64,000 nucleotides of DNA from an uncultured Methylomirabilota bacterium (GCA_963842855.1 CAWJHW010000003.1:696616-760615), one strand, 5' to 3'. Numbered from the stretch's first letter, positions 1 through 40,748 are shown. The notes: generated from the sequence alone by a model not told the origin. Numbers and translations: made by a program.

Positions 1-959
1 AGCGTGTCCAAGGCGACCGCCGCCGGCAGTTGGGCGCGGAACGTGGGCAGGAGGGCGCGGATGGCGTCTACCACTTCCACCGTGTTCGTGCCCGGCTGCC
101 GCTGGATGGCCAGGACGACGGCGCGGCTGTCATTGCGCCAGCCCGCGACCTTGTCATTCTCCACGCTGTCGATGACGCGGCCGAGTTCCTCCAGGCGCAC
201 GGGGGAGCCGTTGCGGTAGGTGACGATCAGCGGGCGGTAGGCCGCGGCATCGAAGAGCTGCCCGTTGGCCTCGATCAAAAATGTCTGATGGCGCCCGTCC
301 AGGTTCCCCGTGGGCAGATTGATATTGCCCTGCAGGATGGCGTTTTCGACTTCGTCGATCCCGATCCCACGCGAGGCCAGAGCGGTTGGATCGACCTGGA
401 TCCGGACCGCGTACTTCTGGGCACCCCAGACCAAGACCTGCGAGACGCCGCTCACCATCGAGATGCGCTGGGCCATGAGGGTCTCTGCGTACTCGTCCAC
501 GGTGGAGAGGGGGAGCGTGGGCGAGCTCAGGGCCAGGAAGAGGATGGGGGAATCGGCGGGGTTGACCTTGCGGACGGTGGGCGGGCTGGGCATGTTCGGC
601 GGCAATTGGCGCTGGGCCGCAGCGATGGCCGCCTGGACGTCCTGGGACGCGGCGTCGATGTTCCGTTCCAGGGCGAACTGGAGGGTGACCCGCACGGCCC
701 CTTGCACGCTGCTGGACGTCATGTTGTCGATGCCGGCGATGGTGGAGAACTGCTTCTCGAGGGGCGTGGCCACGGAAGAGGCCATGGTCTCCGGGCTGGC
801 CCCGGGCAGACTGCCGGACACCTGGATGGTTGGGAAGTCCACGTTCGGCAGATCGCTCACGGGCAGGACCCGGTAGCCCATGAAGCCGAAGATCAGGATG
901 GCCGCCATGACGAGGGTGGTCATGACCGGCCGGCGGATGAAGAGCTCGGGGATGTTCAT
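1..959 (-). CDS. RND (AcrB/MexB-type) efflux permease, N-terminal part; continues beyond window start
   Basis: Own minus-strand translation from ATG 959 gives MNIPELFIRRPVMTTLVMAAILIFGFMGYRVLPVSDLPNVDFPTIQVSGSLPGASPETMASSVATPLEKQFSTIAGI..., a canonical RND N-terminus. ATGA start/stop overlap with the adaptor gene upstream. Open to position 1, so absent from the ORF track. Confidence 0.85.
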   Translation of the reverse strand, partial: MNIPELFIRRPVMTTLVMAAILIFGFMGYRVLPVSDLPNVDFPTIQVSGSLPGASPETMASSVATPLEKQFSTIAGIDNMTSSSVQGAVRVTLQFALERNIDAASQDVQAAIAAAQRQLPPNMPSPPTVRKVNPADSPILFLALSSPTLPLSTVDEYAETLMAQRISMVSGVSQVLVWGAQKYAVRIQVDPTALASRGIGIDEVENAILQGNINLPTGNLDGRHQTFLIEANGQLFDAAAYRPLIVTYRNGSPVRLEELGRVIDSVENDKVAGWRNDSRAVVLAIQRQPGTNTVEVVDAIRALLPTFRAQLPAAVALDT

Positions 960-2342
960 TGCGCCCGCCCCGAATCCGTGGCCGCCGCCGGCTTCGCCTC
1001 CACGCGGGCGCCAGGGACGAGCCGGAGCTGTCCGTCGGTCACCACCTTCTCCCCCGGCGCGATGCCTTTCGCCACCACGGTCTCGGCGCCGAGCGTCATG
1101 CCCACGGTGATGGGGCGCGACTCCACCGTGAGGTCCGATCGCATCACGTAGACATACTGGCCCTGCTGGCCGTTTTGAATGGCCTGGGAGGGGATGACCA
1201 CCACGTCAGGCTGGACGGTGAGCGTCAGGATCACGGTGACGAACTGCCCCGGCCAAAGGATCCCCCGCTGATTCGGGAAGGTGGCCTTGAGCTGGATGGT
1301 TCCCGTGGTGGCGTCCACCGTGTTGTTCACGAACGTGAGCTCTCCCGCTGCCGGCGAGTCGTCCTGGCCCCGCGGGAACGCCTGGACGCGAACGCTGCCG
1401 GCCGCCAGATACTTTTTGACGTCCGGGAGATATTGCTCGGGGATGGAGAAGCTGACATAGATCGGATGAATTTGGTTCAGGACGAGCATTTGTGCGGTAT
1501 CGTCTCGGGCCTTGACGGCACTGCCCACGCGCACCAGGAGGTTCCCCGCGCGCGCATCCATCGGAGCGCGGATGGTCGTGTACCCGAGTTGCACCTGCGC
1601 GTTCTCCACCACCGCCTGATCGGCCTTGATGACCGCCTTGATGTTCTCCACCGTGGCCTGGGCGGCCCGGATCGAAGCCCTGGCGTTCGTCACCGCGGCC
1701 TGGTCCGCCTGGATCGTCGCCTCCAGGGCGGCGGCGGTGGTGCGGACCTGATCGTAGAGTTCCTGTCGAGATGGCCCCGTCGTCGATCAGCCCCTTGTAG
1801 CGGCGGACTTGAGTCGTCGCATTCTCGAGCTGCGCCGCGTCGCGTGCGAGGTTCGCCTCCGCCTGCTCTTCCGCCGCCATGCTCTGCGCCACCGCGGCTT
1901 CCGCCTGCTGGAGCTGCGCCGTATCGCGCCCCAGGTTGGCCTCGGCTTGGCGGAGAGCCGCCTCCAAGGGGCGCTGGTCCAGCGTGAAGAGCAGATCGCC
2001 CTTTTTGACCTCCTGGCCCTCCAGGATGTGGATGCGGGCGACCTCTCCATCCAGCTGGCTCTTGAGCGTCACGCTCGCATACGCCTGTACCGTGCCGACC
2101 GCGCGGATCTGGACCGGGGCGGGCTTGCGGACCGCGGTATCTATGGTCACCGGGACAGCCTCCCCCGCCGCGGGCCCCTTGGCCTGGGCTTTCTCGGAGG
2201 CCCCGTCGGAACAGGCCACGAGGAGGGCGGCGACTAGCAGCAAGGCTGCCCCGGATAGTGCGCGAGGCCTCAGGAGAGCAGTCGGCTGGCGGTACGCCCC
2301 GGCATTACTATCGGCAAGACTCAAGAGGTTCCCAATGTCCAT
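956..2342 (-). pseudogene. RND efflux periplasmic adaptor (HlyD/AcrA family), split by one apparent frameshift near 1765-1775
   Basis: ORF 1206..2342 is the N-terminal half (signal/lipobox-like LLVAALLVACSDG, coiled coil AEANLGRDTAQLQQAEAAV). ORF 956..1693 is the C-terminal half (GYTTIRAPMDARAGNLLVRVG..., VVIPSQAIQNGQQGQYVYV). Reading ...YKGLIDDGAIS and shifting one base gives QELYDQVRTTAAALEATIQADQAAVTNARASIRAAQ, which joins the halves. Confidence 0.8.
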
Positions 2343-2666
2343 CCACGTTCTCCGTATTGACTATTGACCTGACAGCCCGGCTCGGTCCCCCTCGCCCTGC
2401 CCCCAGTTGTGCGTTCAGATGGGTTGCCCTCTTCATCTTGGCCACGCACGATCAGGGACGGCATGATCGGCTCGAAGTTGTCCTGAGGAATAAAACACCT
2501 AATTATCCCTACAATTCCACTATCCTGTCAATGGTCATTGCTGTCCGAAATGTCCAGTGGCTCACAGCACACAATGGATGAACACTCGTTCAGCGTAGCG
2601 GCGCCCACGGGGAGGGTCAAGCGAAATCTCGGACATCCGCACCGGTTCAGTACATTATGGTCGTCT

Positions 2667-2694
2667 CAATCCGAAATCCCCAATCCTCAATCGC
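2667..2694. repeat. 4 tandem heptamers CAATCCN (caatccg aaatccc caatcct caatcgc)
   Basis: Read directly; lies just downstream of the minus-strand gene ending at 2704. Confidence 0.5.
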
Positions 2695-2703
2695 TGTCAG
2701 GGG

Positions 2704-2961
2704 CTACGGCGTGACCTTCAGGACGCTGTCCCCCTTTCGTACCCGTTCCTTGACTCGGATCCCTACGGTCTGTCCCGGCTCTCCACGCTGCACGCCCTGG
2801 TGTTCGAGCTGGATGGACTCCACCACTTGAGTGACGTCCGTGGTGTGCCCCTTGATGCGGATGGTGTCGCCGACACTCAAGAAGCCCGCGGTCACCTGGA
2901 CTCCCGCCACGCCGATCTTTCCGAAATAGTCCATGACCCTGCCAATGACCTCTTCGCCCAT
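2704..2961 (-). CDS. Small EF-Tu-domain-2-like protein (translation elongation factor-like protein, ~85 aa)
   Basis: MGEEVIGRVMDYFGKIGVAGVQVTAGFLSVGDTIRIKGHTTDVTQVVESIQLEHQGVQRGEPGQTVGIRVKERVRKGDSVLKV has a beta-barrel-like pattern. GGGAGG lies 7 nt upstream of ATG 2961. Confidence 0.55.
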   Translation of the reverse strand: MGEEVIGRVMDYFGKIGVAGVQVTAGFLSVGDTIRIKGHTTDVTQVVESIQLEHQGVQRGEPGQTVGIRVKERVRKGDSVLKVTP

Positions 2962-3164
2962 GGCTGCACCTCCCGATCGCATGCGAAGTGTGAGTGCGAC
3001 CGCGCATTCCCGCGCCGTCAGCCATGGACGTTACCACCGGCCGGGAGATGGGGGCAAGGGATTTCTCCCGCGCGCGGCGGCGCAGCGATTCTGTGCGATT
3101 GACAGCCTCTGCCGCATCGGCTATAAGGCATTGTCTATCTCCCGTCGTCCCCGAGGAGACCCCG

Positions 3165-5884
3165 ATGCTACCGCAATCCTTGATCGGCCCCATCCTGATC
3201 GTGTTCGTCATCCTGGGCGTACTGGGGCAGGCCCTTCCCCTCTACACCGACTACCTCTGGTTCCAGGAGGTGAAGCTGGCGTCGGTCTTCACCACCATCC
3301 TTTGGACCAAGCTTGCTTTGGCCCTCGCGGCCGGCCTCGCCTTTGCCGCCCTCGTCTACGTGAATGTCTACCTAGCGGCCCGCTCCACAGCCAGCGACGT
3401 CCTGGTGGAGCTGGACGATCCCTTCGGCCTGCCCAGCCGCCTGGTCATCGAGCCGCTCTTCCGGAAGTTCTTGCTGCCCGGTGCCTTGGTCCTGGGCTTC
3501 CTCGCCGGGTCCCAGGCCACCGGGCAGTGGGAGACCTTCCTGAAGTTCTTCAATGCGCAGCCGTTCAACATGCAGGATCCCCTTTTCGGCCGCGACATCG
3601 GCTTCTACGTGTTCCGCCTGCCGGTCCTGGAGACGCTCTACGCCTGGGCCATGACGGCCCTCGGCCTCACGTTCCTCTTGGTCGTGGCCACGACCCTCCT
3701 CCACCGCGGCATCCAGATCACCCCCCGCGGGCCGCGGGTGGCCGCCCACGCCCGGGCCCACCTCCTAGCCCTGGGCGCCCTGATCCTCCTGGTGAAGGCG
3801 GGCGGCTATTACCTGGACACCTACGATCTTCTGTTCTCGCCCCGGGGCGTGGTCTTCGGCGCCAGCTACACCGACATCAACGCGCAGTTGCCGGCCCTCC
3901 GCATCCTCACCATTCTGTCCCTGGTCTGCGCGGCGATTTGCATCTGGCAGATCGGCCGCCGCGGCATCCGCCCCCTCTTCATCGCCCTGGCGGTGCTGCT
4001 GGCCGCCAACGTGGTGGGGCTGGGGATCTATCCCAGCCTCCTCCAGCGGTTCCGGGTGGTGCCGAACGAGATTGCGGCCGAACGGCCGTACATCGAGCAG
4101 AACATCAAGTTCACGCGCATGGCGTACGCCCTGGACCGCATCCAGGAGCAGGAGTTCCCCGCCGAGGAGACCTTGACCGCCGACGACCTGCGGAAGAACG
4201 ACGCCACCATCAAGAACATCCGCCTCTGGGACCACCGGCCGCTCTTGGCGACATACGCCCAGCTCCAGGAGATCCGGACCTACTACCGCTTCGTGGACGT
4301 GGACAACGACCGCTACATGGTGGACGGCCAGCTCCGCCAGGTCATGCTCTCGGCGCGCGAGCTGTCCTACCAGAACCTCCCCAGCCGGATCTGGATCAAC
4401 GAGCGCCTCACCTACACCCACGGCTTCGGCGTCGTCCTGGGGCCGGTGAACCGGATCACCCCCGAAGGCCTTCCGGAGTTCTGGACCAAGGACATCCCCC
4501 CGGCCACCACCGGCCCGCTCAAAGTCACGCGTCCCGAGGTGTACTACGGTGAGATCGGCAACGACTACGTGTTCGTCAAGACGCGCGCCCAGGAGTTGGA
4601 CTACCCGGCCGGCGACAAGAACGTCTACAGCAACTACGCCGGGGAGGGAGGGGTCCCGGTTCAGTCTTACCTGCGAAAGCTCCTCTTCGCACTGCGCTTT
4701 GGGGACGTGAAGATCGTCCTGTCCAACGACATCATCGGCGAGAGCCGGGTGATGTACTACCGGGAGATCGGGGAGCGGGTGAAGAAGGCCGCCCCCTTCC
4801 TCCAGTTCGAGCGCGACCCCTACCTGGTCATCGGGCAGGACGGACGCCTGTTCTGGATCATCGACGCCTACACCACCAGCGACCAGTTCCCGTACTCGGA
4901 GCCGGTCCGGGGTATGGGGAACTACATCCGGAATTCAGTCAAGGCCGTAGTGGACGCCTACAACGGCAGCCTGGCCTTCTACCTCAGCGAGCCGGATGAT
5001 CCGGTGGTCAAGGCCTACGCCCGGGCCTTCCCCGGTCTCTTCCAGCCGCTCTCGGCCATGCGGGCCGATCTCCGGCCCCATATCCGGTACCCGCAAGGGC
5101 TCTTCGCCATCCAGGCCCGGATGTACGCAACGTACCACATGCGGGATCCGCAGGTCTTCTACAACAAGGAGGACCTGTGGAGCATCCCGAAGCAAGACGG
5201 TGGACGGGCAGGAGCGCGAGATGGAGTCCTATTACACCATCATGCGGCTTCCTGGGCGAGAAGACCGAGGAGTTCATCCTGCTGACCCCATTCAACCCCA
5301 GCAAGAAGGACAACATGATCGCCTGGTTGGCGGCGCGAAGCGACGGGCCGCATTACGGGAAGCTGATCGCCTACATCTTCCCCAAGCAGAAGCTGATCTA
5401 CGGCCCGCGCCAGATCGATGCCCGCATCGACCAGGACGCCGTTCATCTCCCAACAGCTCAGCCTGTGGAGCCAGCGCGGCTCCCAGGTTATCCGGGGGAG
5501 CATGCTGGCCATCCCCATCGAGCAGTCCCTCCTCTACGTCCAGCCCCTCTACCTAGCCGCCGAGAAGGGCTCGCTTCCCGAACTGAAGCGGGTCATCGTG
5601 GCCGATCGGGAAATCAGATCGCCATGGAGGAGAATCTGGAGGCCTCCCTGGCCCAGATCTTCGGCGGGCCCGGGAAACAGCGCGTCGTGGCCCGGGCAGA
5701 GGCGCCCCCGGCGGCGGGATCCGCCCCGGGACCCCCGGAAAACGTCCGCGGGCTGGTGGACCAGGCCTGGCAACAGTACACTCGCGCCCAGGATATGCTG
5801 CGTCAGGGGAATTTCGCGGGCTATGGAGATGAGGTCAAACGGCTGGAAGGAACGTTGAAGGCGCTCCGTGAGCGCGCCCGGTAG
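3165..5884 (+). pseudogene. UPF0182 family large membrane protein; 3' quarter needs four frame changes
   Basis: ATG 3165 is preceded by GAGGAG. Multi-TM N-terminus MLPQSLIGPILIVFVILGVLGQALPLYTDYLWFQEV; later ...PYLVIGQDGRLFWIIDAYTTSDQFPYSEP. The C-terminus is recovered only by switching frames near 5195, 5255, 5444 and 5606: [20 protein letters not shown] / [36 protein letters not shown] / [53 protein letters not shown] / [29 protein letters not shown]. Confidence 0.8.
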
Positions 5885-11119: not shown

Positions 11120-11347
11120 ATGGCCGCTGCGTATGTCCTCATCGAGGCGGCACCCAAGAAGGCGCTGCGGGCCTGCGCCAAGATCGCAAAGATCTCCGGC
11201 GTGAAGTCGGCCCATCTGGTCACGGGGCCCTACGATATCATTGCCTTCGTCGAGGCGAAAGACCCTGGCGCCATCGGCAAGCTGGTGATGGCAAGAATCC
11301 AGGCGGTGCCCGGCGTGGGGAAGACCATCACCTGCGTCGTGGTCTAG
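11120..11347 (+). CDS. Stand-alone Lrp/AsnC ligand-binding (RAM) domain protein, ~75 aa
   Basis: MAAAYVLIEAAPKKALRACAKIAKISGVKSAHLVTGPYDIIAFVEAKDPGAIGKLVMARIQAVPGVGKTITCVVV. GGAGGAG lies 7 nt upstream of ATG 11120. Confidence 0.7.
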   Translation: MAAAYVLIEAAPKKALRACAKIAKISGVKSAHLVTGPYDIIAFVEAKDPGAIGKLVMARIQAVPGVGKTITCVVV

Positions 11348-11458
11348 CCCTTCAGGCAACCTGGCGATCTGGCAACCAGGCAATCTGCAGTTCCGCGTTG
11401 CCGGCTACCTTCAGCATGCGCCCAGTTGCCGGGTCGCCTGATTGCCTACCCTGAAAGG
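11348..11458. repeat. GGCAAY/RTTGCC octamer palindromic module, copy 1
   Basis: Left arm caggcaac ctggcgat ctggcaac caggcaat (11353-11384). Right arm gttgccgg ... gttgccgg gtcgcctg attgccta (11397-11448). Flanked by ccttcagg / cctgaaagg. Spans the gap between the convergent AsnC-like and pepA stops. Confidence 0.65.
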
Positions 11459-13030: not shown

Positions 13031-13130
13031 AGCGGTCAGCAATCAGCGATCAGGACAGAATGACCACAGGCTAGCGGCTAGAGCTTGCCCGACCCCGGAG
13101 CTGAATCCTGACGGCTGAAGGCCGACCGCT
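13031..13130. repeat. Octamer-periodic imperfect inverted repeat (agcggtca gcaatcag cgatcagg ... cctgacgg ctgaaggc cgaccgct)
   Basis: 19 of 24 positions are complementary between 13031-13054 and 13107-13130 (hand alignment). Lies in the divergent region between pepA and the aminotransferase. Confidence 0.5.
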
Positions 13131-13300: not shown

Positions 13301-14660
13301 ATGGCCAACTGGGACGTCCCCGCGCTGCTCAGCGAGGATCGGCAACATCTCCTCCATCCCCTGTGGCACCCTGCAGACCATGCGGAACCGCACGTCTGGG
13401 TCCGGGGCCAGGGGGCCGTCCTGACCGATGCCTCCGGGCGCGAGTTCCTCGACGGCCTGTCCTGCCTCTGGAACGTGAACGTCGGCCACGGTCGCCGCGA
13501 GCTGGCCGAGGCGGCCGCCCTGCAGATGGAATCTCTCGCCTTCGCGACCAACTATGCCGGGTCCGCCAATGTCCCGGCCATCCAACTGGCGCGCCGACTG
13601 ACCGAGATCGCCTATCCGAACCTCAGCGCCGTATTCTTCACCAGCGGGGGCGCGGAGTCCAACGAGAGTGCCTTCAAGACGGCGCGCTTTTATTGGAAGG
13701 CCAAGGGCCGCCCGGAGAAGGTGAAGGTCATCGCCCGGGAGTTCGGCTATCACGGCGTGACGCTGGCGGCCATGAGCGCCACCGGCGTCGCCGGCTACGC
13801 CAAGATGTTCGAGCCCCGCGTGCCCAACTTCGTCCACACGGCGACTCCCTACGCCTATCGCCTCGCCGGTGTGAAGCCCGGGGAGACCGTGGGGCAGGCC
13901 GCCGCCCGGATGCTGGAGGAGACCGTCCTCCGCGAGGGCCCCGACACGGTGGCGGCCTTCATCGCGGAGCCTGTGCAGGGCGCGGGCGGGATCATCGTCC
14001 CGCCGGACGATTACTTCCCCCGGGTGCGGGAGATCTGCGCCAAGCACGACGTGCTCTTCATCGCCGACGAGGTCATTACCGGCTTCGGCCGTACCGGCCG
14101 GTGGTTCGCCCTAGAGCGCTGGGGGGTGCAGCCCGACATCCTTGCCTTCGCCAAGGGGATCACCAGCGGCTACCTCCCCCTCGGGGGCATCATGGTCTCC
14201 GAGCCCATCCGCGAGGCGATGCTGTCGGTCCCCTATGCCGACCGCTGGATGCACGCCTACACCTACTCGGGACACCCGACCTGCTGCGCCGTGGCCTTGC
14301 GGAACCTGGAGATCCTAGAGAAGGAGGGGCTGGTGGGAACGGGCGGAGAAGATGGGCCAGCGCCTGCTGGACGGGGCGCGGAGCCTGCTCGACCTCCCGG
14401 CCGTCGGCGAGGTTCGCGGACTCGGATTGATGGTCGCCGTGGAACTCGTGGCGGACCGTGCCACCAAGGCGGCCTTCGATCCCGCCAAGAACGTCATCGG
14501 CCGGGTGCGGAAAGAGTTGGAGGCGCGTGGGCTCTTCACGCGGGTCGTGCGCGACATCATCCTGCTGGCGCCGCCCCTGGTCATCACCGAGGCCCAGGTG
14601 GATCGGATCGTGCAGATCCTGCGCGAGGGCATCCGTGCGGTGCTCCCCGACCGCGCGTAA
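13301..14660 (+). pseudogene. Class-III (omega) aminotransferase, one apparent +1 frameshift near 14336
   Basis: FTSGGAESNESAFK, FIADEVITGFGRTGRWFA and AFAKGITSGYLPLGG (PLP Lys). After ...LEILEKEGLV the frame must shift (extra G in gtgggaacg) to continue ERAEKMGQRLLDGARSLLDLPAVGEVRGLGLMVAVELV...ITEAQVDRIVQILREGI (ORF 14352..14660). Confidence 0.85.
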
Positions 14661-14679
14661 AATCAACAGCCCGCCGGTA

Positions 14680-14718
14680 CCAACGGTGCAACCGTTGGTG
14701 CCAACGGCAGCGCGTTGG
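14680..14718 (+). terminator. Two consecutive GC-rich hairpins built from CCAACGG/CCGTTGG words, directly after the aminotransferase stop
   Basis: CCAACGGT-GCA-ACCGTTGG (14680-14698) and CCAACG-GCAGCG-CGTTGG (14701-14718). No U-tract. Confidence 0.45.
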
Positions 14719-14741
14719 TGCGCCATGATCGCCAACATTAC

Positions 14742-14824
14742 GTGGCAATTGGGCAACCAGGCGCACCCAGGGGGCCGGCAACCTGGAACCCCTGATTGCC
14801 AGATTGCCGGGTTGGCCGATTGCC
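14742..14824. repeat. GGCAAY/RTTGCC octamer palindromic module, copy 2
   Basis: Left arm gtggcaat tgggcaac ... gccggcaac. Right arm tgattgcc agattgcc gggttggcc gattgcc. Confidence 0.65.
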
Positions 14825-14873
14825 TTCCCATGGTGGTCTTGGCGCCTTGGCGGTTGAAACCTCGGATTGAATC

Positions 14874-15317
14874 GTGCGACGCCTATCGGCCTTTCGCCTC
14901 CGGCGCTTCTTGACGGTGACCGAGCGCGAACAGATCGCGGCCGCCCTGGCCGAGGCGGGACGCCACACCCGGGCGAGGATCGGACTCTCCATCGACGAGC
15001 AGGCGACCAGGGACCCCCGGGCCCGCGCCCGCACCCTGTTCCAGGAGTGGCAGCTCCCCGAGGGCGAGCGACCCACCGCCGTCCTGGTCTACGTCTCCGC
15101 TCCCAGCCGGACCTACGCCATCGTCGGCGGCGAGGATGTGCACCGTATCGCGCCCCAGACCTTCTGGGAGCTGTTGGACCGGGATCTCCACCACCACTTC
15201 GAGGAGGGCCGCTACTGCGACGGGATCTTCAAGGCGATCGCCCAGGTGGCCATCCAACTCGATCGCCACTTCCCCCGGGAGCCGGAGACAAGGCCTGAGG
15301 CACCTTCCGACCCCTGA
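14874..15317 (+). CDS. TPM-domain (TLP18.3/Psb32/MOLO-1 type) protein
   Basis: ...ERPTAVLVYVSAPSRTYAIVGGEDVHRIAPQTFWELLDRDLHHHFEEGRYCDGIFKAIAQVAIQL fits the TPM-domain pattern as I remember it. Confidence 0.55.
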   Translation: MRRLSAFRLRRFLTVTEREQIAAALAEAGRHTRARIGLSIDEQATRDPRARARTLFQEWQLPEGERPTAVLVYVSAPSRTYAIVGGEDVHRIAPQTFWELLDRDLHHHFEEGRYCDGIFKAIAQVAIQLDRHFPREPETRPEAPSDP

Positions 15318-15509
15318 GGAAATCCCATCCGGACCTCCGATCAAACACGCCTGCCCGGATAATTGAGGGCAGAGACCACACCCTCCAGCTTGGGCGCAAG
15401 GATCCAAGGCCGCACGGTTCCACTCTGTCCCGTTCCCTTCCAGACTCTTTTCCGAGCGTTTTGACAGACTGTTCTGCTGAGTCGGGCGGGACGGGCGGGG
15501 CGGAATCCC

Positions 15510-16868
15510 TCAGTACGAGTTGATCATCTCCTCGACGCGGGGGTCGGTGGGCTTGAAGGGGTCCTTACACAGGATGGTGCGCTGGTAGCGGTCGTTGAGT
15601 TTGAGGTAGGACCAGCCCACGTCGTAGGACTTGTTCCGCTCGTTGGCGAACTTGATGAAGTCGGAGCGGATCTTGGCCCGCGTGGTCTGGGGGGACGTCA
15701 GCGTGGCCTCGTCGATCTCCTCGTCGGTGAACAGCCGCTCCACGTGCCCCTGCCGGCAGAGGGCGTTGTACAGGCCCCGGTCCCGGCGGATGTCGTGGTA
15801 CTGCAGGTCCAGCATGCTGATGCGCTGGTCGTCGAAGCCGATGCCCTTCCTCCCCATGTAGGAGGCGATGAGCTCCTTCTTGATGACCCAGTCCAGCTCC
15901 CGGGCGCAGGCCAGGGGGTCCTCGCTCAACCGGTCCAGGACGGCCTGCCACCGCTCTAAAAGGTCGCTCACCTGGGGGGAGAGCTCGGCCGTGGCGTAGT
16001 ACTCCAGGGCCAGCTCCAGGTACTCCCGCTGCAGCTCGATGGCGGAGAACTCCTTCCCCCGCTTCAGGCGGACCTTGCGCCGGCAGGTGGTGTCGTGGGA
16101 GATCTCCTTGATGGCCCGCACCGGGTCCTCCAGCCCGAGGTCCTTCCGGATGACGCCGTCCTCCACCATGGCCAGCACGATGGCCGTGGTCCCCACCTTG
16201 AGGTAGGTCGTCACCTCGGACATGTTGGAGTCCCCGACGATGACGTGGAGCCGCCGGTACTTCTCCTCGTCGGCGTGGGGCTCGTCGCGGGTGTTGATGA
16301 TACCCCGGGAGCTGGTGGTGGCCCCCGAGATCTCCTGGTAGATGTGCTGGGCCCGCTGCGAGATGTAGTAGTGGTTCCCCAGCCGCGTCTTCAGGACCTT
16401 GCCGGCCCCGGCGAAGATCTGGCGGGTGACGAAGAAGGGGATGAGCTGCTCCGCCAGCTTGTGGAAGTTGACCCCTCGCTCCACCAGGTAGTTCTCGTGG
16501 CAACCGTAGGTGTTGCCTACCGAGTCCGTGTTGTTCTTGAAGATGAAGATGTCGCAGTCGATCCCGTTCTCGTGGAGCTTCCGCTCCGCGGTGAGCAGGA
16601 GCTCCTCGATGATCCGCTCCCCGGCCTTGTCGTGGATGGTGAGGTCCAGGGCGTTGTCGCACTCGGGGGTGGCGTACTCGGGGTGGCAACCGGTGTCCTG
16701 GTACAGGCGGGCCCCGTTCCTGAGGAAATCGTTGGTGCCGCGCTGGCGGGAGACGACCTTCTCGAAGAGATAGCCGAGGGCGCTCTCCACCGAGAGGTTC
16801 ACGCGCCCGCCGGCCGAGGATGAGATCAGGCCGTATTCGTTCTCGAGGCCGAAGATGCGCCGCTGCAT
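15510..16868 (-). CDS. pafA: Pup--protein ligase PafA
   Basis: MQRRIFGLENEYGLISS..., GARLYQDTGCHPEYATPEC, YGCHENYLV and INTRDEPHADEEKYRRLHVIVGDSNMSEVTTYLKVG. 452 aa, intact, last gene of the proteasome cluster. Confidence 0.9.
   Translation of the reverse strand: MQRRIFGLENEYGLISSSAGGRVNLSVESALGYLFEKVVSRQRGTNDFLRNGARLYQDTGCHPEYATPECDNALDLTIHDKAGERIIEELLLTAERKLHENGIDCDIFIFKNNTDSVGNTYGCHENYLVERGVNFHKLAEQLIPFFVTRQIFAGAGKVLKTRLGNHYYISQRAQHIYQEISGATTSSRGIINTRDEPHADEEKYRRLHVIVGDSNMSEVTTYLKVGTTAIVLAMVEDGVIRKDLGLEDPVRAIKEISHDTTCRRKVRLKRGKEFSAIELQREYLELALEYYATAELSPQVSDLLERWQAVLDRLSEDPLACARELDWVIKKELIASYMGRKGIGFDDQRISMLDLQYHDIRRDRGLYNALCRQGHVERLFTDEEIDEATLTSPQTTRAKIRSDFIKFANERNKSYDVGWSYLKLNDRYQRTILCKDPFKPTDPRVEEMINSY
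15792..16301 (-). repeat. 510-bp segment of pafA nearly identical to 18738..19248 inside dop
   Basis: Base-by-base hand comparison finds only one substitution (cagcCcgagg vs cagGccgagg) and one 1-nt indel (gtccccgac vs gtcgcccgac). Confidence 0.9.
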
Positions 16869-16889
16869 GGCGGCCGGGACCGGCCGAGA

Positions 16890-17591
16890 TCAGGCGGCCC
16901 CCTCCCCCTCCTTCTCCATCAGCTCCCGGAGCTCGGCCAGGGGGATGCGGCGGAATTTCCGCCCCACCCGCTCCCGCTCCAGGACTGCGACCTCCATGTT
17001 GACCGCCTTGACCTTCTGGCTGGCGGCCGCCTCCAGGCCGCGCCCGGCCAGCCGCAACGCTTCTTCCAGGCTGAGGCTGTCCCGGTACTTGTCCCGCAGG
17101 AACAGCTTCAATTCCTCGGCCTGCCCGCCGATGGTGGCGTAGCCCTTCTCGTCGGCGATGCTCCCGTCGAAGGTGATGCGATACAGCTCGTTCCCGGCCG
17201 TCCCCTCACCCACCTCCAGGACCAGGATCTCCACCTCCAGCGGCTTGATCTCCATGCTGAAGATGTTCCCGATCGCCTGGGAGTAGGCATTCGCCAGCGA
17301 CTTGGCCGTGACGTCCTCGCGGCCGTAGGCGTAGCCTTTGAGGTCGGCGTACCGGATCCCTTCCTTCCGCAGCCGCTCGAACTCGCTGTACTTGCCGGCC
17401 CCCGCGAAGGCGATCCGGTCGTAGATCTCCGAGATCTTGTTCAGGGCGGCGCTGGGATTCTCGGCCAGGATCAGGACGCCGTCCCGGTATTCCAGCGCGA
17501 TGATGGACCGCCCCTTGGCGATGCCCTTGCGGGCGTACTCCGCCTTGTCCTGCATCATCTGCTCGGGAGAGACGTAGTAGGGAAGCGGCAT
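16890..17591 (-). CDS. prcA: 20S proteasome alpha subunit
   Basis: MPLPYYVSPEQMMQDKAEYARKGIAKGRSIIALEYRDGVLILAENPS...YDRIAFAGAGKYSEFE. Confidence 0.9.
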   Translation of the reverse strand: MPLPYYVSPEQMMQDKAEYARKGIAKGRSIIALEYRDGVLILAENPSAALNKISEIYDRIAFAGAGKYSEFERLRKEGIRYADLKGYAYGREDVTAKSLANAYSQAIGNIFSMEIKPLEVEILVLEVGEGTAGNELYRITFDGSIADEKGYATIGGQAEELKLFLRDKYRDSLSLEEALRLAGRGLEAAASQKVKAVNMEVAVLERERVGRKFRRIPLAELRELMEKEGEGAA

Positions 17592-17607
17592 CGCCCTCTC
17601 CTCGACC

Positions 17608-18405
17608 TCAGCCGGCCCGGCGCGCGTTGGCGATCGCCTCGCACAACGAGGCGACGCGGTCGTCGGGAACGTCCTGGATCCCGGCCCGCGTCACCAGCTT
17701 GACGCTGGGAAAGATCCTCCGGACGAAATCCGGCCCGCCGGTCCCGGTGTCCTCATCGGCGGCGTCGTACAGCGCCTCCACCGCCAGGTGGATCGCGTCG
17801 GCCTCGGGCATGGCCGGCCGGTACAACTTCTTCATGGTGGCGCGGGCGTCCTTCCCGCCGGAGCCGATAGCGTAATATTCCGCCTCGTCGTAGCGGCCAC
17901 CGGCCAGGTCGTACTTGTATATCCGCCCCTCGTCCCGCCGGAGATCGTAGCCGACGAAAATCGGGATCACCACCAGCCCCTGGATCGCCAGCGGCAGATT
18001 GGCCCGAACCATCTGGGCCAGCTTGTTGGCCTTCCCCTCCAGGCTTAGGACCATCCCCTCGAGCTTCTCGTAATGGGCCAGCTCCGTCTGGAAGAGCCGG
18101 GCCATCTCGAGGCACGGGCCCGCCGCCCCGGCGATGGCGATGGCCGAGTGGTCATCGGCCGCGTACACCTTCTCGATCCGCCGCGAGGCGACCTGGTACC
18201 CCTCGGTGGCCTGCCGGTCGCCGGCGACGACCACCCCCTCCTGGCAGCGGAGCGCCAGCACGGTGGTGCCGATGGGGACCGGCAACACCGTCTCGCGCGG
18301 CTCGGGCCCCTCGGCGGCGAACTGGGGTAGGTGCGCCGGCTCCCGCTGCCGCAGCAGGTCGAAGAAGCTGGATCCGGCATCGGACTGGCTGAAGGACAGA
18401 TTCAC
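17608..18405 (-). CDS. prcB: 20S proteasome beta subunit (with propeptide)
   Basis: GTG 18405 gives VNLSFSQSDAGSSFFDLL... Processing site ...VPIG|TTVLALRCQEGVVVAGDRQAT, then ...YAIGSGGKDA. AGGAGG lies upstream and overlaps the dop stop. The track merges this with dop as a 766-aa ORF. Confidence 0.9.
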   Translation of the reverse strand: MNLSFSQSDAGSSFFDLLRQREPAHLPQFAAEGPEPRETVLPVPIGTTVLALRCQEGVVVAGDRQATEGYQVASRRIEKVYAADDHSAIAIAGAAGPCLEMARLFQTELAHYEKLEGMVLSLEGKANKLAQMVRANLPLAIQGLVVIPIFVGYDLRRDEGRIYKYDLAGGRYDEAEYYAIGSGGKDARATMKKLYRPAMPEADAIHLAVEALYDAADEDTGTGGPDFVRRIFPSVKLVTRAGIQDVPDDRVASLCEAIANARRAG

Positions 18406-18419
18406 GGGCCGCGCACCTC

Positions 18420-19908
18420 CTAGCCTGCCAGCCGCTCCAAGAGGTCGGCCACGCTGTCCGATCGCTCCAGGATCTCCCCCACGAGCTTCCGAGTGCCCCG
18501 GGCGGGCTCGGCCATGGGAATCTTCTTCACCGTGGCCTCGCCCGTGTCCAGGAGGATCGAACTCCAGCTGGCCCCGTAGATGTGATCGGGGAATTTCTTG
18601 AGACAGGTCCCGCGAAAGTAGGCGCGCGTGTCCGCGGGCGGGCTGCCCATCGCCTCCCGGATTTCGGCGTCGGTCAGGATCCGCTCCACGTAGCCCTCGC
18701 GCTCCAGGCGGTAGTAGAGCCCCTTGTCCGCCCGCAGGTCGTGGTACTGCAGGTCCAGCATGCTGATGCGCTGGTCGTCGAAGCCGATGCCCTTCCTCCC
18801 CATGTAGGAGGCGATGAGCTCCTTCTTGATGACCCAGTCCAGCTCCCGGGCGCAGGCCAGGGGGTCCTCGCTCAACCGGTCCAGGACGGCCTGCCACCGC
18901 TCTAAAAGGTCGCTCACCTGGGGGGAGAGCTCGGCCGTGGCGTAGTACTCCAGGGCCAGCTCCAGGTACTCCCGCTGCAGCTCGATGGCGGAGAACTCCT
19001 TCCCCCGCTTCAGGCGGACCTTGCGCCGGCAGGTGGTGTCGTGGGAGATCTCCTTGATGGCCCGCACCGGGTCCTCCAGGCCGAGGTCCTTCCGGATGAC
19101 GCCGTCCTCCACCATGGCCAGCACGATGGCCGTGGTCCCCACCTTGAGGTAGGTCGTCACCTCGGACATGTTGGAGTCGCCCGACGATGACGTGGAGCCG
19201 CCGGTACTTCTCCTCGTCGGCGTGGGGCTCGTCGCGGGTGTTGATGATCGGCCGCTTGGCCATGGTGTCCAGGCCGATCAGGGTCTCGAAGAAATCGGCC
19301 CGCTGGGAGATCTGGTAGTCGCAGGGATCCGTCCCGTTCTCCGCCCCCACCTTGCCGGCGCCGCAGAAGATGATCCGCGAGACCAGAAACGGGGTCAGGC
19401 CCTCCACCAGCTGCTCGAAGGGGAGCCGGCGGGCGACCAGGTAGTTCTCGTGGTAGCCGTAGCTGTTCCCCTTGCCGTCCGTGTTGTTCTTGTAGACGAC
19501 CAGCTGCTGGGGGGGCGGGAGCTTCCGGTTGGCCGCCTCGCGGCACCCGTCGAAGATCCGCTCCCCCGCCTTCTCGAAGAGCACCAGGTCGCGGGCGTTA
19601 GTGGTCTCGGGCGTGGAGTACTCGGGGTGGGCGCCATCCACGTACAGGCGACCGCCGTTCGGCAGCACCTTGTTGATGGCGCGGTTGTCCTGCTGGCTGG
19701 GCCGCTCCCGTTCGCCGCTGACCTCGAATCCCCGGGCGTCCAGCAGCGGATTCTCGCCCGCGTAGTCCCACATGGCCCTGAGGGGCTCGCCCATGGGCAG
19801 CGCGTTGATGAGGAAGATGGAGCTGCCGACGGGATCGAAGCCGGAGGTGTCCCGGGCCGTGATTCCGACCTCCGTCTCGCTCCCCATGATCTTCTCGATG
19901 GCCATCAA
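18420..19908 (-). pseudogene. dop: Pup deamidase/depupylase Dop, one apparent 1-nt insertion near 19178
   Basis: N-terminus MMAIEKIMGSETEVGI.., Dop-specific insertion ...ARGFEVSGERERPSQQDNRAINKVLPNGG.., [31 protein letters not shown]. The frame then breaks. The continuation [11 protein letters not shown]...LDLQYHDLRADKGLYYRLEREGYVERILTDAEI...ERLAG* is ORF 18420..19169. Confidence 0.85.
18738..19248 (-). repeat. 511-bp segment of dop nearly identical to 15792..16301 inside pafA (direct repeat, 2.9 kb apart)
   Basis: See the partner entry. The dop frameshift (extra C in gggCgactcc) lies inside this segment. Confidence 0.9.
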
Positions 19909-20048
19909 TGTGTCCTTTTACGGCGACGCCCCGCTCCCGGGGAGGCGCCCCGACCGCTTTCGCCTCTGTGCCTGCTGTCACACCTGGCAAACGCCACGGC
20001 CCGGGGACGGGCCGCGGATGCCGACGAATCGATGAGGCGGGCGGGTCC

Positions 20049-21838
20049 TCAGAGGTAATGACCCGTGCTGATGGTCTCGACCTTGCGTGGCTTTTTGCCT
20101 TCCCGGTCGAACACCGGCCGGACGTGCACGATGCGCTCGGTCCGGCGGGCGGCGATCTTGGCCCAGTCGTCGGGGTTGGTGGTGTTGGGGAGGTCCTCGT
20201 TCTCCCGGAACTCGGTCTTCACCGCCTCCACCAGGTCGGCCGCGGTGAGGCCCTTCACCCCGGTGGCGATCATGCGCTTGACGGCGGCCTTCTTGGCCCG
20301 GGTGCAGACGCTCTCGATGAGGGCCCCGCTGACGAAGTCCTTGAAGTAGAGCGTCTCCTTCTCCCCGGAGGCGTAGGTGACCTCCAGGAAGCGGTGGGCC
20401 TCGTCGGCGGCGAACATCTCGGCCGTGGCGGCCTCGAGGGCCCCCTCGGGGGTCTCGCCGGGGCGCCAGGGGAGCTCGGCCGTGCAGTACTTCCCGAAGA
20501 TCTCCCGGGCGGCCTCCCGGGCGGGCCGGTCGATCCGGATCTTCACGTCGAAGCGGCCGGGGCGCAGCACGGCCGGGTCGATCAAGTCCTGCCGGTTGCT
20601 CGCCCCGATGACGATGACGTTGCGTGAGCCCCTCCACCCCGTCCAGCTCGGCCAAGAACTGGGGGACGATGGTCGACTCCACGTCCGAGGAGATGCCGCT
20701 GCCCCGGGTGCGGAAGAGGGAGTCCATCTCGTCGAAGAAGATGACCACGGGGGCCCCGGCGCTGGCCTTCTCCTTGGCCCGGGCGAAGATCTCCCGGAGC
20801 TTCCGCTCCGTCTCCCCCACGTACTTGTTCAGGAGCTCGGGGCCCTTCACGTTCAGGAAGTAGGCGGGGCTCGGCGTCCCGGTCTGTCTCGGAGAGCTGC
20901 TGGGCCAACGCGTTGGCCACGGCCTTGGCGATGAGGGTCTTCCCGCAGCCCGGGGGGCCGTAGAGCAGGACCCCCTTGGGGGGCGTGAGCTTGTGGGCGG
21001 CGAAGTGCTCGGCGTAGAGCACGGGGAGCTCGATGGCGTCCCGGATCTGCTCGATCTGGGGCCCGAGGCCCCCCACGTCGGCGTAGGTGATGTTGGGGAC
21101 CTCCTCCAGGACCAGCTCCTCCACCTCGGCCTTGGGGAGCCGCTCCAGGACGACCCCGGCCCGGGCGTCCAGGCGGAGGAGGTCGCCCACCTGGAGGCCC
21201 GTGTCCTGGAGGGCCGCGCTGAGCTCCACCACCCGCTCCTCGTCGGCGCGTAGGGCCACCACCACCCGGGCGGCATCCAGCCGGTCCTTCAGGCGGACCA
21301 CCTCCCCCTGGGGGTCGGCCGTGCCGGCCGCCACGACGTTCAAGGCCTCGTTCAGGACCACCTCCTGGCCCCGGGAGAGCTGCGCGGCCTCCACCCCGGG
21401 GGCCACGGTCACCTTGAGCTTCCGGCCGGCTGTCCAGACGTCCACGGTCCCCTCGGGGTGGGTGGTGAGCACCGTCCCGTAGCTATTCGGGGGGGCGGCC
21501 AGCTTGTCCACCTCGGCCCGCAGGGCGGCGAGCTGCTCCTTGGCCTGTTGGAGGGCAGCCACCAGGCGCTCGTTCTGCTGGTGGGCGTGCTCGAGTTGTT
21601 CCCGCGACTGGCTCAACTTGGTCCGGAGGAACTCGAATTCCTTCGGCGTCTGCTCCAGGCGCCGGCGCAGGTGGAACATCTCCTCTTCCAGCGCCTTGAC
21701 CTGCGCCTGCAGACCATCGATGTCCGTTTCGTATTGGTCGATCTGCCGCTGAGACAAAGCGTCGCCCTTGGGCAGTTGCCCCGAGAGCTTCCGCATCGTC
21801 TTGCGCAGAGAGTTCAGCTTGGTTTCGGAATCACCCAT
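20049..21838 (-). pseudogene. arc: Proteasome-associated AAA ATPase ARC/Mpa, two apparent frameshifts (about 20622 and 20875-20900)
   Basis: Coiled-coil N-terminus MGDSETKLNSLRK...; Walker [16 protein letters not shown]. Frame 2 gives [50 protein letters not shown]...[10 protein letters not shown]. Frame 3 gives [33 protein letters not shown]... and ends ...ISTGHYL* (compare the Mpa GQYL docking tail). Confidence 0.85.
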
Positions 21839-22171
21839 CCTCGTCCGGCCTCCGCCAGCGACACAACCACATCCCGCCCCAGGCACGCGCTGGTGCGGCA
21901 AGTCGCGGCATCACGTCGAGCGCTGTCACGATGATGCAAGGTATCTTAAACGGCTTTCGGGGGGTGTCAAGTCTTTTTGTCCCTCGGAAATCGCGCCTCG
22001 GGACGTTCGCATCGCCCTCGGCGCGTCGCGTTTCCCGGGAGGCCGCCGCGGAGATCCTCCGGCCGCGGCCGGTCCACAAACGAGAATGGCTGGGGTGCCC
22101 CCAGCCATCCCAACGCGCGGGTCGTCGTTTCGGTTCCCCCGGCACGCGGGGGATCAGTGGCTGCACGTCCC

Positions 22172-22372
22172 TCACCCGCTGCTGGTGCAGCCGCCGCAAC
22201 TTCCGCCGCGGGATCCGACGAACCGCCCTTCGCCCTTGAAGGCGAACGCGGAGAACTGCTTGGTGACCTTCGGGCTCTCGCACTTCGGGCAGGCGACCCG
22301 GCTCCGGCTGGAGGCGACGCGCTTCTCGAAGGCGTGAGCGCACTCGTCACAGATGAATTCGTAGATCGGCAT
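22172..22372 (-). CDS. FmdB-family zinc-ribbon protein
   Basis: MPIYEFICDECAHAFEKRVASSRSRVACPKCESPKVTKQFSAFAFKG with a Gly/Cys tail. CxxC..CxxC layout typical of the FmdB family. Confidence 0.8.
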   Translation of the reverse strand: MPIYEFICDECAHAFEKRVASSRSRVACPKCESPKVTKQFSAFAFKGEGRFVGSRGGSCGGCTSSG

Positions 22373-22407
22373 CCGCTCTCTCCACGCCCCGCGAACCGCT
22401 CGCGGGG

Positions 22408-22605
22408 CTACTCGCCGCCGCGCTGGACGTAGCTCTTCACGAACTCCTCGGCGTTCTCCTCCAGCACGTCGTCGATCTCATCCACCAGCTTGTCCATGTC
22501 CTCCTTCAGCTTCTTGCCCTTCTCCGTGACCTTGGCGCTCGGCTGCCCGCCCTCGCCCGACGGCGGCCCCTCCGTCCGTTTCTGTTTCCGCTCCTGCTCC
22601 GCCAT
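22408..22605 (-). CDS. pup: Prokaryotic ubiquitin-like protein Pup (65 aa, C-terminal GGE)
   Basis: MAEQERKQKRTEGPPSGEGGQPSAKVTEKGKKLKEDMDKLVDEIDDVLEENAEEFVKSYVQRGGE*; compare M. tuberculosis ...LLDEIDDVLEENAEDFVRAYVQKGGQ. AAGGAGG upstream of ATG 22605. Hidden in the tail of track ORF 22408..22941. Confidence 0.9.
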   Translation of the reverse strand: MAEQERKQKRTEGPPSGEGGQPSAKVTEKGKKLKEDMDKLVDEIDDVLEENAEEFVKSYVQRGGE

Positions 22606-22658
22606 CGCGTTCCTCCTTCTTCCCCGCCAGGGCGGGGAGTGTTTCCCTCGCTGGCCTC

Positions 22659-23189
22659 TTACCGGCTGACCACCCAGATGAGATGGGGCAACTCCGGAAG
22701 GAGCAGCTTGCTGAGGCCCAGGCGCACCGCTGCCTCGGAACCCGGCAGGCAGCAGATCACGCGCCCCTGACTCACGCCGCAGATGGCCCGGCTGAGGGCG
22801 GCCGCGGCGCCGATCTCTCCATAGCTCAACCAGCGAAACAGCTCGCCGAACCCTGGCAGGACTTTCTCCAGGAGGGGCGTCACTGTCTCGACGGTCAGAT
22901 CGCGTCGGCCCGCCCCTGTGCCGCCGGTCACCACCAGGCACTGGCCGGGGCCCTGCAGGAACCGGCGCAGCGCGGCCTGGATTCGCCAGGGCTCGTTCTT
23001 CACCGCCTCGTAGTCCACCAGGCGGTGGCCGGCCTCGTTGAAGAGCCGCTGGATGAGTCGCCCCGACTCATCGGTGGCCTCGGTCCGGCTGTCGCTGACC
23101 GTGAGGACCGCGTACGCGACTGATCCGATTGTCCGGGCACTGGCCCGGTGATCCGGGACACCCATCGCGCCACCTCGGGAGAGAGACAA
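22659..23189 (-). CDS. moaB: Molybdenum cofactor biosynthesis protein B (MoaB/MogA family)
   Basis: ...AYAVLTVSDSRTEATDESGRLI..., VVTGGTGAGRRDLTVETV, ...VICCLPGSEAAVRLGL. Confidence 0.8.
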   Translation of the reverse strand: MSLSRGGAMGVPDHRASARTIGSVAYAVLTVSDSRTEATDESGRLIQRLFNEAGHRLVDYEAVKNEPWRIQAALRRFLQGPGQCLVVTGGTGAGRRDLTVETVTPLLEKVLPGFGELFRWLSYGEIGAAAALSRAICGVSQGRVICCLPGSEAAVRLGLSKLLLPELPHLIWVVSR

Positions 23190-23264
23190 TGAGACGCGGA
23201 CAATCCGGCCGCGTCCTCTGTGTGACCAGCGGGTTCTCCTCCGTCGCGCCCCCGCCGGCGATCA

Positions 23265-23426
23265 CTACGACAGCTCTTGCTGGATCCGGAGGACGGTGGA
23301 ATAGTCGATCCCGGTCTGGGCCGAAAGCCGCAGGAGATCCCGCTCCGTGATCTTGCTCCCCCGCTTCATGATGGCTTGCAGTTCCCGCCGGATGACCTCC
23401 GCTGCCTCCTCACCCTTCACTCGCAT
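23265..23426 (-). CDS. Small (53 aa) helix-turn-helix-like protein, below the ORF-track size cutoff
   Basis: Own translation MRVKGEEAAEVIRRELQAIMKRGSKITERDLLRLSAQTGIDYSTVLRIQQELS*. AAGGAG lies 6 nt upstream of ATG 23426. Confidence 0.45.
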   Translation of the reverse strand: MRVKGEEAAEVIRRELQAIMKRGSKITERDLLRLSAQTGIDYSTVLRIQQELS

Positions 23427-23572
23427 GCACGGCTCCTTGCCGCAGATTCACTCACCCATCCGGATCACGGGCCTGGACGGCGCGTCCTCCCTGACCCGGT
23501 CCGCCCGGCATGCCGGGACCGACAGGATGTGCCCCCATGAACTCTCCGTTCCATCACGACCGCAGGGCGGGC

Positions 23573-40723: not shown

Positions 40724-40748
40724 TCTTTAATCCCCCACGGAGGATGCG

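Follow-up and report, generated by a model that had tools for sequence, protein, structure and literature searches.

The stretch of DNA analyzed here (the window; 64,000 nt, CAWJHW010000003.1:696616-760615 of GCA_963842855.1, from an uncultured Methylomirabilota bacterium) has a G+C content of 66.7% and contains housekeeping genes that include those for a Pup-proteasome system, SecA, ilvD, pyruvate kinase, and ABC transporters. Where homologs of its PepA protein have a name, the annotation is candidate division NC10 or Candidatus Methylomirabilis; an exact look-up of the PafA protein found no record. Three of its intergenic spacers, located between pepA and an AsnC-type gene, between an aminotransferase gene and a gene encoding a TPM-domain protein, and between an ABC ATPase gene and ilvD, contain an element in which tandem octamers of the form GGCAAYNN are followed by tandem octamers of the reverse complementary form, NNRTTGCC (copies 1 to 3; Table 1). 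Near-identical sequence is present in Joint Genome Institute (JGI) contigs from other samples (L001-L003), and GCA_964566435.1 represents a relative with 98% PepA identity. Given that the sequences of the three sites are present in the independent assemblies L001-L003, the sites are not assembly artefacts.

Copy 1 lies between two convergent stop codons, that of the AsnC-type gene (11345-11347) and that of pepA (11446-11448), and its last base is common to the element and the pepA stop; the first G of one of its GGCAAT units is the G of the pepA TAG codon. On the minus strand, copy 1 is composed of three units, a 20-nt insert (11403-11422), one unit, a diverged center, GGAACTGCAG (11385-11394 on the plus strand), and four RTTGCC units; on the plus strand the order is GGCAAC ct GGCGAT ct GGCAAC ca GGCAAT, the center, GTTGCC, the 20-nt insert, and GTTGCC gg GTCGCC tg ATTGCC. 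Copy 2 is located downstream of two CCAACGG/CCGTTGG hairpins that come after the true stop codon of the aminotransferase gene (14658-14660; the apparent run-on to 14728 is caused by an extra G at 14335 relative to L001). Its left arm reads GGCAAT tg GGCAAC and is interrupted by a 17-nt insert, GGCGCACCCAGGGGGCC (14760-14776), after which come the core (14777-14800; GGCAAC ct GGAACCCCTG ATTGCC) and three further RTTGCC units, one with an extra base (ag ATTGCC gg GTTGGCC g ATTGCC). Copy 3 is in the spacer that separates the ABC ATPase stop (55475) from the ilvD start (about 55250) and consists of four GGCAAYNN and four NNRYYGCC units, GGCAAT ca GGCAAC cc GGCAAT cc GGCAAC ca GGATCCCCAG ATTGCC ag ACTGCC gg AGCGCC cg GTTGCC, with its center GGATCCCCAG at 55409-55418. 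A two-unit pattern, GGCAAYNNGGCAAY, allowing at most one mismatch, has 13 matches in the window and all 13 fall inside the three sites, compared with an average of 1.03 and at most 5 in shuffled sequences (0 of 100 reach 13), and the period-8 arrays at these sites are also reported independently by Tandem Repeats Finder (TRF). The octamer architecture that the initial annotation, made from the sequence alone, had described at three sites is therefore real (its end coordinate in "14742-24824" is a typing error), as are the placements it gave for the three copies; it had also described copy 3 as nested within heptamer arrays, which do flank the copy in this spacer, but about 60 nt of unique sequence separate copy 3 from the array at 55273-55316.

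Aligning the window copies with L117, a match from a genome scan, revealed a feature that the initial annotation had missed, namely a conserved non-palindromic center. The canonical element is 72 nt long and comprises four GGCAAYNN units, the center GGAACCCCWG, and four NNRTTGCC units. A scan of metagenomes for the 24-nt core, GGYAACNNGGAWCCCCWGATTGCC, gave 93 matching stretches that represent about 85 loci with different flanks, such that what had been presented as a three-copy module, with further copies expected, is a large dispersed family with a defined unit. The family consensus is GGCAAC cg GGCAAY cn GGCAAT cn GGCAAC yn GGAACCCCTG ATTGCC aa ATTGCC gg ATYGCC tg ATTGCC, and the modal number of units is four in both the left arm (33 of 81 copies) and the right arm (61 of 81). 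Conservation is strongest in the hexamer words and the asymmetric center, and one spacer position per unit is free. When the window was searched with an nhmmer profile built from 83 copies (76 columns), exactly three sites and nothing else were recovered, a density of about one copy per 20 kb. The three sites are members of one discrete repeat family. We found no literature on repeats in Rokubacteria or Methylomirabilis, and this specific 72-nt family appears not to have been described before.

Table 1. Positions of the family copies, their mosaic partners, and other word arrays (in the window unless a locus is named).
Feature	Position	Strand	Context	Evidence	Predicted fold
Copy 1	11355-11446	canonical orientation on -	pepA/AsnC-type spacer	sequence; profile match 11411-11354 (-), E 3.4e-9	-50.5 (+), -57.6 (-) kcal/mol
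Copy 2	14744-14824	+	aminotransferase/TPM spacer	exact 24-nt core match; profile E 5.1e-16	-50.4 kcal/mol, z -3.4
Copy 3	55377-55448	+	ABC ATPase/ilvD spacer; canonical, uninterrupted 72 nt	profile E 1.6e-16	-61.2 kcal/mol, z -7.4, on transcribed - strand
Two GGTACCAACGG...CCGTTGGTGCC-type hairpins	14665-14725		right after aminotransferase stop		-32.7 kcal/mol, z -3.2
CTTGGCGCCTTGGCGG, two GCCAAG-type octamers	14838-14853		outer flank of many family copies	exact match	
TCAGCNN x3, 44-nt spacer, NNGCTGA x3	13031-13118		pepA/aminotransferase divergent spacer	sequence	-50 kcal/mol on -
CGTGAAA x3.7, spacer, TTCACGT x3.1	49500-49571		between AlkZ-like stop and MazG-like start	TRF	-50.7 kcal/mol, z -5.8, transcribed -
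Self-complementary AATTTCG array	47785-47816		5' end of RlpA-like lipoprotein gene (DPBB and SPOR domains)		
CTCGGCK heptamer array, about 6 units	55273-55316	+	between copy 3 and ilvD start, in ilvD leader	TRF	
TCTCGGC heptamer array, 2.6 units	55450-55467	+	abuts right end of copy 3	TRF	
CTCGGCT-type array	40688-40726	+			
CTCGGCT-type array	59512-59553	+			
GGCAAYNN long array	L045 4670-4777		runs to locus end		
GGCAAYNN long array	L079 4564-4697				
GGCAAYNN long array	L084 2021-2090				
GGCAAYNN long array	L012 5921-5966				

The gene context of the family was assessed with a crude open reading frame (ORF) caller, and 48 copies have genes called on both sides. These copies are located between co-directional genes in 35 cases, convergent genes in 8, and divergent genes in 5, and 45 of the 48 are outside called ORFs. 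The nearest stop codon is mostly less than 120 nt from the copy, in agreement with the initial annotation, which had placed the module at gene ends; many copies are inside apparent operons, 27-60 nt from the next gene. Orientation of the element in co-directional spacers is divided 16 vs 19. No recurrent partner gene was identified among 104 neighboring ORFs, which match 117 Pfam families, the commonest of which are merely abundant families. A strand bias at the level of RNA was considered, given that two window modules fold better on the transcribed strand, but was rejected on the basis of this family orientation and of an inconsistent wobble asymmetry.

Many copies are parts of mosaics composed of several short motifs. 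GCCAAG-type octamers (AACCGCCAAGGCGCCAAG and its complement) flank 33 of 78 copies, 27 on one side and 6 on both, and the GGTACCAACGG...CCGTTGGTGCC-type hairpin motif found beside copy 2 flanks many copies elsewhere (L133, L140, L156, L190, L202, and L211). Other motifs are GGTACCAACGGC...GCCGTTGGTGCGCC hairpins, GTCCCGCCC...GGGCGGGA hairpins, and GGGTACCCAGCGC...GCGCTGGGT palindromes; three mosaic motifs are combined at the second window site. In 17 of 85 copies the left arm is broken by a mini-hairpin of 16-20 nt, CACCCAGAGGGTACCC, and in 4 of 85 the right arm is broken by its complement. Two strains whose flanks are 94.5% identical have the mini-hairpin on opposite arms (L144, about 160-280; L198, about 860-1010), and 14 of its 38 occurrences are away from any exact core. 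The behavior of CACCCAGAGGGTACCC resembles that of a very small insert directed at the palindrome on either strand and recalls the small dispersed repeats of cyanobacteria.

The element changes by gain or loss of whole octamers, by mini-hairpin inserts of 14-20 nt in either arm, and by replacement with modules of other words. Copy 3 has orthologs in L169, L188, and L175. In a series of relatives chosen through PepA alone, regardless of the element, the pepA-asnC spacer contains a GGCAAY module in the window, in L004 (98% PepA identity), and in L505 (82%), a GGCAAT array only in L008 (85%), a TCAGC heptamer module in L504 (84%), and unrelated sequence in L005, L006, and L506. The aminotransferase-TPM spacer contains the full mosaic in the window and in L504 and a different module, composed of AGGAGGCT/AGCCTCCC words, in L004 and L006. 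The elements are long-lived at some sites and replaced at others, which is the behavior reported for the regions that contain bacterial interspersed mosaic elements (BIMEs).

All three window copies are predicted to form long imperfect hairpins on both strands (-41.6 to -61.2 kcal/mol, z -2.5 to -7.4), as the initial annotation had proposed. For the consensus, the predicted energies of the two strands are -39 and -41 kcal/mol (z about -6.7). Among the 31 uninterrupted copies, in-register pairing holds for 81.4% of cells compared with 8-46% with the partner slid; because the arms are periodic, a fold with DNA parameters prefers a register shifted by one unit. Searches of Rfam at the gathering threshold gave no match at the modules, the only hit in the window being a tRNA-Gly elsewhere, and the E-value mode returned only generic, sub-threshold look-alikes of miRNA hairpins. 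Given the lack of an Rfam match at the modules, a known RNA family or tRNA-related element was excluded, in line with the initial annotation, which had recognized no described element.

Based on copy number, position, and mosaic structure, we assign the three sites, with moderate confidence, to a dispersed palindromic family of the repetitive extragenic palindromic (REP)/BIME kind, non-coding and lineage-specific, in an NC10/Methylomirabilota-like bacterium. The assignment proposed in the initial annotation, REP/BIME-like with an unusual word-periodic build, thus stands in its first part; the build has precedents, as described below. In common with the REPs of E. coli and Pseudomonas and with REP doublets forming hairpins (REPINs), the family is short, extragenic, high in copy number, and lineage-specific, has two inverted halves and a short spacer that form a hairpin, and is found near gene ends in either orientation with no target-site duplication and with some orthologous persistence; REPINs, which comprise two inverted REPs and a spacer, are described as vertically inherited and long-lived. 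The family differs in that each half consists of four tandem octamers rather than a 20-25-nt imperfect palindrome with a GTAG-like head and in that the asymmetric center is its most conserved part. The BIMEs of enterobacteria and the rhizobium-specific intergenic mosaic elements (RIMEs) are likewise variable intergenic mosaics of a main palindromic unit and short motifs with a strain-dependent composition; however, there is no sequence relationship, the motifs here being lineage-specific (the GGCAAY element, GCCAAG octamers, CCAACGG hairpins, and CACCCAGAGGGTACCC and GTCCCGCCC hairpins). BIMEs bind gyrase, integration host factor (IHF), or DNA polymerase I.

With regard to the spread and function of this REP/BIME-like element, we infer that it would be copied by a process that leaves no target-site duplication, either a single-strand mechanism like that of REPs and their REP-associated tyrosine transposases (RAYTs) or recombination between copies, and that some elements would then persist vertically. 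Flank matches 0, 2, 3, and 4 nt long were found in 42, 18, 18, and 3 copies, respectively, compared with 37, 29, 12, and 2 in shuffled pairings, and this lack of target-site duplication fits either process. The GGCAAY words and the center may be kept by sequence-specific recognition or by homogenization among copies rather than by selection for base pairing. At the level of RNA, transcription in 3' or intercistronic regions would produce a hairpin of about 30 bp on either strand, and, by analogy with REPs and BIMEs, its most plausible role would be to block 3' exonucleases or to punctuate operons, thereby affecting mRNA decay or read-through; at a site such as pepA, where the element adjoins the stop codon, it could disturb the termination of translation.

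Several observations weigh against membership of the REP/BIME kind or against the role of the hairpin that it would entail. The covariation score of the 31 uninterrupted copies is 0.079 compared with 0.110 in shuffles, and every covariation measure, including the counts of standard pairs and of compensatory changes, is below the shuffled mean, with all 500 of 500 shuffles at least as high as the observed value. A separate count on 83 copies agrees, in that, at the Y/R positions, C-G pairs with both bases changed occur less often than independent changes predict. The arms are complementary because both are arrays of one conserved word and not because pairing is maintained, and the lack of covariation, the conserved asymmetric center, and the fixed 4+4 layout together point to sequence recognition or to recent copying or homogenization rather than selection on a helix; nothing shows selection on the hairpin itself. 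No T-tract follows the stem at any of the three window copies and a terminator scan reports none there, so the element is not a canonical terminator. Neither a RAYT nor another transposase was seen among the annotated genes of the window or the commonest families of neighboring ORFs, and no insertion sequence was seen in the loci examined, although no genome-wide search was made. The arms are head-to-tail GGCAAYNN units with no internal dyad, not small palindromes with a GTAG-type head as in classical REPs; strict membership among RAYT-mobilized REPs fails on this feature, that the halves be palindromes. Orthologous pairs whose coding flanks are only 79-90% identical keep the element, their arms differing by whole units, truncations, and inserts, but this sample of persistence is biased, both members of each pair having been found via an intact core. 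Finally, the element at the second site is absent from the closest relative, L004.

Arrays of other words accompany the family in this lineage. In the window, these include two further tandem-then-inverted heptamer modules, a self-complementary array at the 5' end of a gene that the crude ORF call fused to that of an upstream HEAT-repeat protein, and one-armed arrays of the CTCGGCT type at four places, all on the plus strand (Table 1), one of which is 25 nt upstream of the start codon of an HpcH-aldolase gene. In related loci, CTCGGCT forms 11 arrays and CATGGCT 12. Across 707 kb of lineage DNA (L130-L222, L004-L008, and the window), TRF reports 74 arrays of at least three copies with period 7 and 131 with period 8, most of the latter being the GGCAAY elements for which the loci were selected, compared with 1, 3, and 1 for periods 5, 10, and 11. 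A 21.5-kb locus of a relative with a 5.6-Mb sequence, L506 (71% PepA identity), contains only one period-7/8 array, which indicates that array load differs between lineages.

Among the matches listed in a scan of a genome collection, GGCAAY octamer arrays are present in Acidobacteriota, Planctomycetota, Verrucomicrobiota, Mesorhizobium, and others, and at least about a dozen of the listed matches are tandem-then-inverted (e.g., the Vicinamibacterales loci L022 and L123, L047 of Mesorhizobium, and L085 of Phycisphaerae); these loci also hold many 7- and 8-bp arrays of other words. Long perfect GGCAAYNN arrays with 6 to >17 identical units are found in Verrucomicrobiales, Pseudomonas, Opitutales, and Frankia (Table 1). 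One contig of 5.35 Mb from an Acidobacteriota metagenome-assembled genome contains a stretch of about 1.9 kb (L066, 4413-6292) in which 15 RTTGCC words precede 11 GGCAAY words and CGGAGTCC/TCCCGCAG octamer arrays recur among them about every 80 bp, a large, higher-order inverted-array layout. In viral contigs, three control words of the same composition form 53, 32, and 117 stretches with an 8-bp period compared with 79 for GGCAAY, and an inverted partner array is present within 150 nt for 6-14% of arrays of any word, whereas about 0.25% would be expected by chance according to our own estimate. We therefore dropped the idea that GGCAAY is special across phyla, the control counts being from viral contigs and not bacterial genomes; the architecture is general.

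Inverted pairs of such arrays have been recorded before. In Geobacter metallireducens, Aklujkar et al. (2009; PMC2700814) described 24 pairs of sites that each contain four tandem octanucleotides, GTTGCTYN (class 1), 21 pairs whose sites have three TCTCCGTS[Y] units, and 8 whose sites have five MTYCTGA heptamers (class 3), the paired sites being on opposite strands, and guessed that they are bound by IHF or HU as sites of global regulators. Compared by description only, class 1 resembles the family studied here in having about four tandem octamers per site, opposite-strand pairs, tens of intergenic copies, and a word, GTTGCTYN, that is near RTTGCCNN. In Geobacter, however, paired sites are separated by a varying distance (about 80-110 bp in class 3), and insertion sequences are located at a fixed distance from class 1 sites, whereas here the arms are joined by a fixed 12-nt segment with a conserved center; the host phylum also differs, and the likeness is architectural only. 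Intergenic heptamer arrays in Xanthomonas and Nostoc (GGGAATC, GGGGAYT) include some inverted pairs, the excess of heptamers being ascribed to polymerase slippage (PMC4692102), and TAACTGA arrays are known from Beggiatoaceae, cyanobacteria, and Bacteroidetes (PMC4679880). These arrays, like the short tandemly repeated repetitive (STRR) sequences of cyanobacteria, are intergenic, numerous in each genome, found at the same genes in relatives, variable in length, and occasionally paired in inverted orientation; unlike the GGCAAY family, they are mostly one-armed and of variable length and lack a conserved center, and the G-quadruplex and translational roles proposed for them do not fit GGCAAY. 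The type of construction is therefore already known, and its function is unexplained in the earlier cases.

The main rival to the REP/BIME-like reading, which we consider rather unlikely, is that the copies are double-stranded DNA platforms for an oligomerizing, sequence-specific protein (nucleoid-associated, a "global regulator," or of the ribbon-helix-helix type) that would recognize GGCAAY hexamers at 8-bp spacing, with four in each arm in head-to-head orientation, the potential to form a hairpin being a by-product of dyad symmetry. The operators of ribbon-helix-helix proteins are contiguous 7-8-bp units, direct as well as inverted, each read by one dimer, and the met-boxes of MetJ (8 bp), the sites of ParG (8-bp spacing), and the heptads of the omega repressor (7 bp, direct and inverted) have exactly the geometry of these arrays; such operators are located at promoters or centromeres, few per replicon, and are not dispersed at the 3' ends of genes. 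A protein platform would account for the concentration of conservation in the hexamers and the non-palindromic center with one free spacer position per unit, for the lack of covariation and the avoidance, if anything, of complementary C-G at the Y/R positions, for a unit number fixed at 4+4, and for a 24-nt core that is kept at orthologous loci with flanks only 80-90% identical, and the Geobacter authors read very similar paired octamers as IHF/HU sites (PMC2700814). Yet most copies are beside stop codons, some of them between convergent genes with no promoter to regulate, the arms are often truncated or broken by 14-20-nt inserts that would disrupt a cooperative array, no candidate protein was identified, and recent copying or gene conversion, rather than binding, may account for the apparent conservation. 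A broader version, which we think improbable, holds that the arrays are primarily not hairpins but genome-wide docking platforms for an oligomeric protein that counts words at 8-bp intervals, four in each arm in head-to-head orientation, and that the many 7- and 8-bp word families of this and further phyla are the cognate sites of a diversified protein family. If true, this would constitute a widespread, unrecognized layer of chromosome architecture or regulation that would include the near-identical GTTGCTYN sites of Geobacter.

The remaining alternatives concern how the element arises and what it does in transcripts. It is dispersed, intergenic, and of defined size, some copies are within a composite of 124-170 bp bounded by inverted TTGAACCGCCAAGGCGCCAAG-like ends, and its presence differs between close relatives, as would be expected of a MITE (miniature inverted-repeat transposable element), here a non-autonomous one derived from a DDE-type insertion sequence, with either the octamers serving as subterminal repeats for transposase binding or the outer CCGCCAAGGCGCCAAG motifs serving as terminal inverted repeats. 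We nevertheless regard a MITE as quite improbable: direct repeats in the flanks are neither longer nor commoner than in shuffled pairings, the outer motif is present on both sides in only 6 of 78 copies, the second site differs between the window and L004 by wholesale replacement rather than clean insertion, no transposase appears among the annotated window genes or the commonest families of neighboring ORFs, and no parent element was seen in the loci examined. That the copies are rho-independent terminators of an unusual long-stem type is very unlikely, even though stable hairpins directly downstream of stop codons with a two-strand symmetry would suit convergent gene pairs and copy 3 has the ABC ATPase stop on one side and a plausible ilvD promoter (read by eye) on the other; besides the missing T-tracts and the negative terminator scan noted above, 5 of 48 copies are in divergent spacers, many are inside apparent operons 27-60 nt before the next gene, and neither conserved words nor a center is necessary for termination. 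Highly improbable, in our assessment, is an origin as simple-sequence repeats by replication slippage in place, followed by template switching that copied one arm to the other, with neither dispersal nor function. The predominance of periods 7 and 8 with many words among the arrays of the lineage (74 + 131 vs at most 3 for periods 5, 10, and 11), the comparable numbers of control-word arrays in viral contigs, the inverted partners of arrays of any word, and the differences in unit number between orthologs are all consistent with slippage, to which the heptamer excess of other bacteria has been attributed (PMC4692102). However, about 85 unrelated loci have the same non-repetitive 10-nt center, word, and 4+4 layout, and the shared center, which independent slippage events cannot produce, largely refutes slippage as the sole explanation; in addition, no module of the window differs in unit number from the 99.2%-identical strain L001.

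Some further observations concern the window and its relatives. Relative to the JGI contig L001 (99.16% identity), the window has eight extra single bases (1767, 5193, 5249, 5441, 5605, 5611, 6737, and 14335) and a 3-nt indel at 4906-4908; the extra bases split a UPF0182 gene (2994-5858) into two ORFs and shift the frame of the aminotransferase gene. This excess of single bases looks like the indel error of long-read assembly and not like genuine pseudogenes. In the relative L007 (87% PepA identity), genes for a type IIG/Eco57I-like methyltransferase-endonuclease and an AccI-like endonuclease are located between the TPM-domain gene and pafA (560-3542); the window lacks these genes at that position. 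In L505 (GCA_040961535.1, 82% PepA identity), an RVT_1 reverse-transcriptase gene is encoded beside NYN-domain and patatin genes (4597-5550), a few kb from pepA, in a neighborhood that may be a retron or a defense island.

The consensus and profile presented here define a previously uncatalogued repeat family of an uncultured soil and sediment lineage and can be used for masking, for spotting assembly breakpoints, and for strain typing via variation in unit number and mosaic composition. The discovery of this REP/BIME-like family changes no established concept, and its function is still unexplained, as in the earlier cases of inverted arrays. It does provide a clean, well-sampled case of a neglected class, the inverted pairs of 7-8-bp arrays that were noted in Geobacter (2009), Xanthomonas, cyanobacteria, and Beggiatoaceae and were never explained, and in this case the negative covariation, the fixed 4+4 layout, and the asymmetric center narrow the question to one of sequence-specific recognition versus RNA structure.

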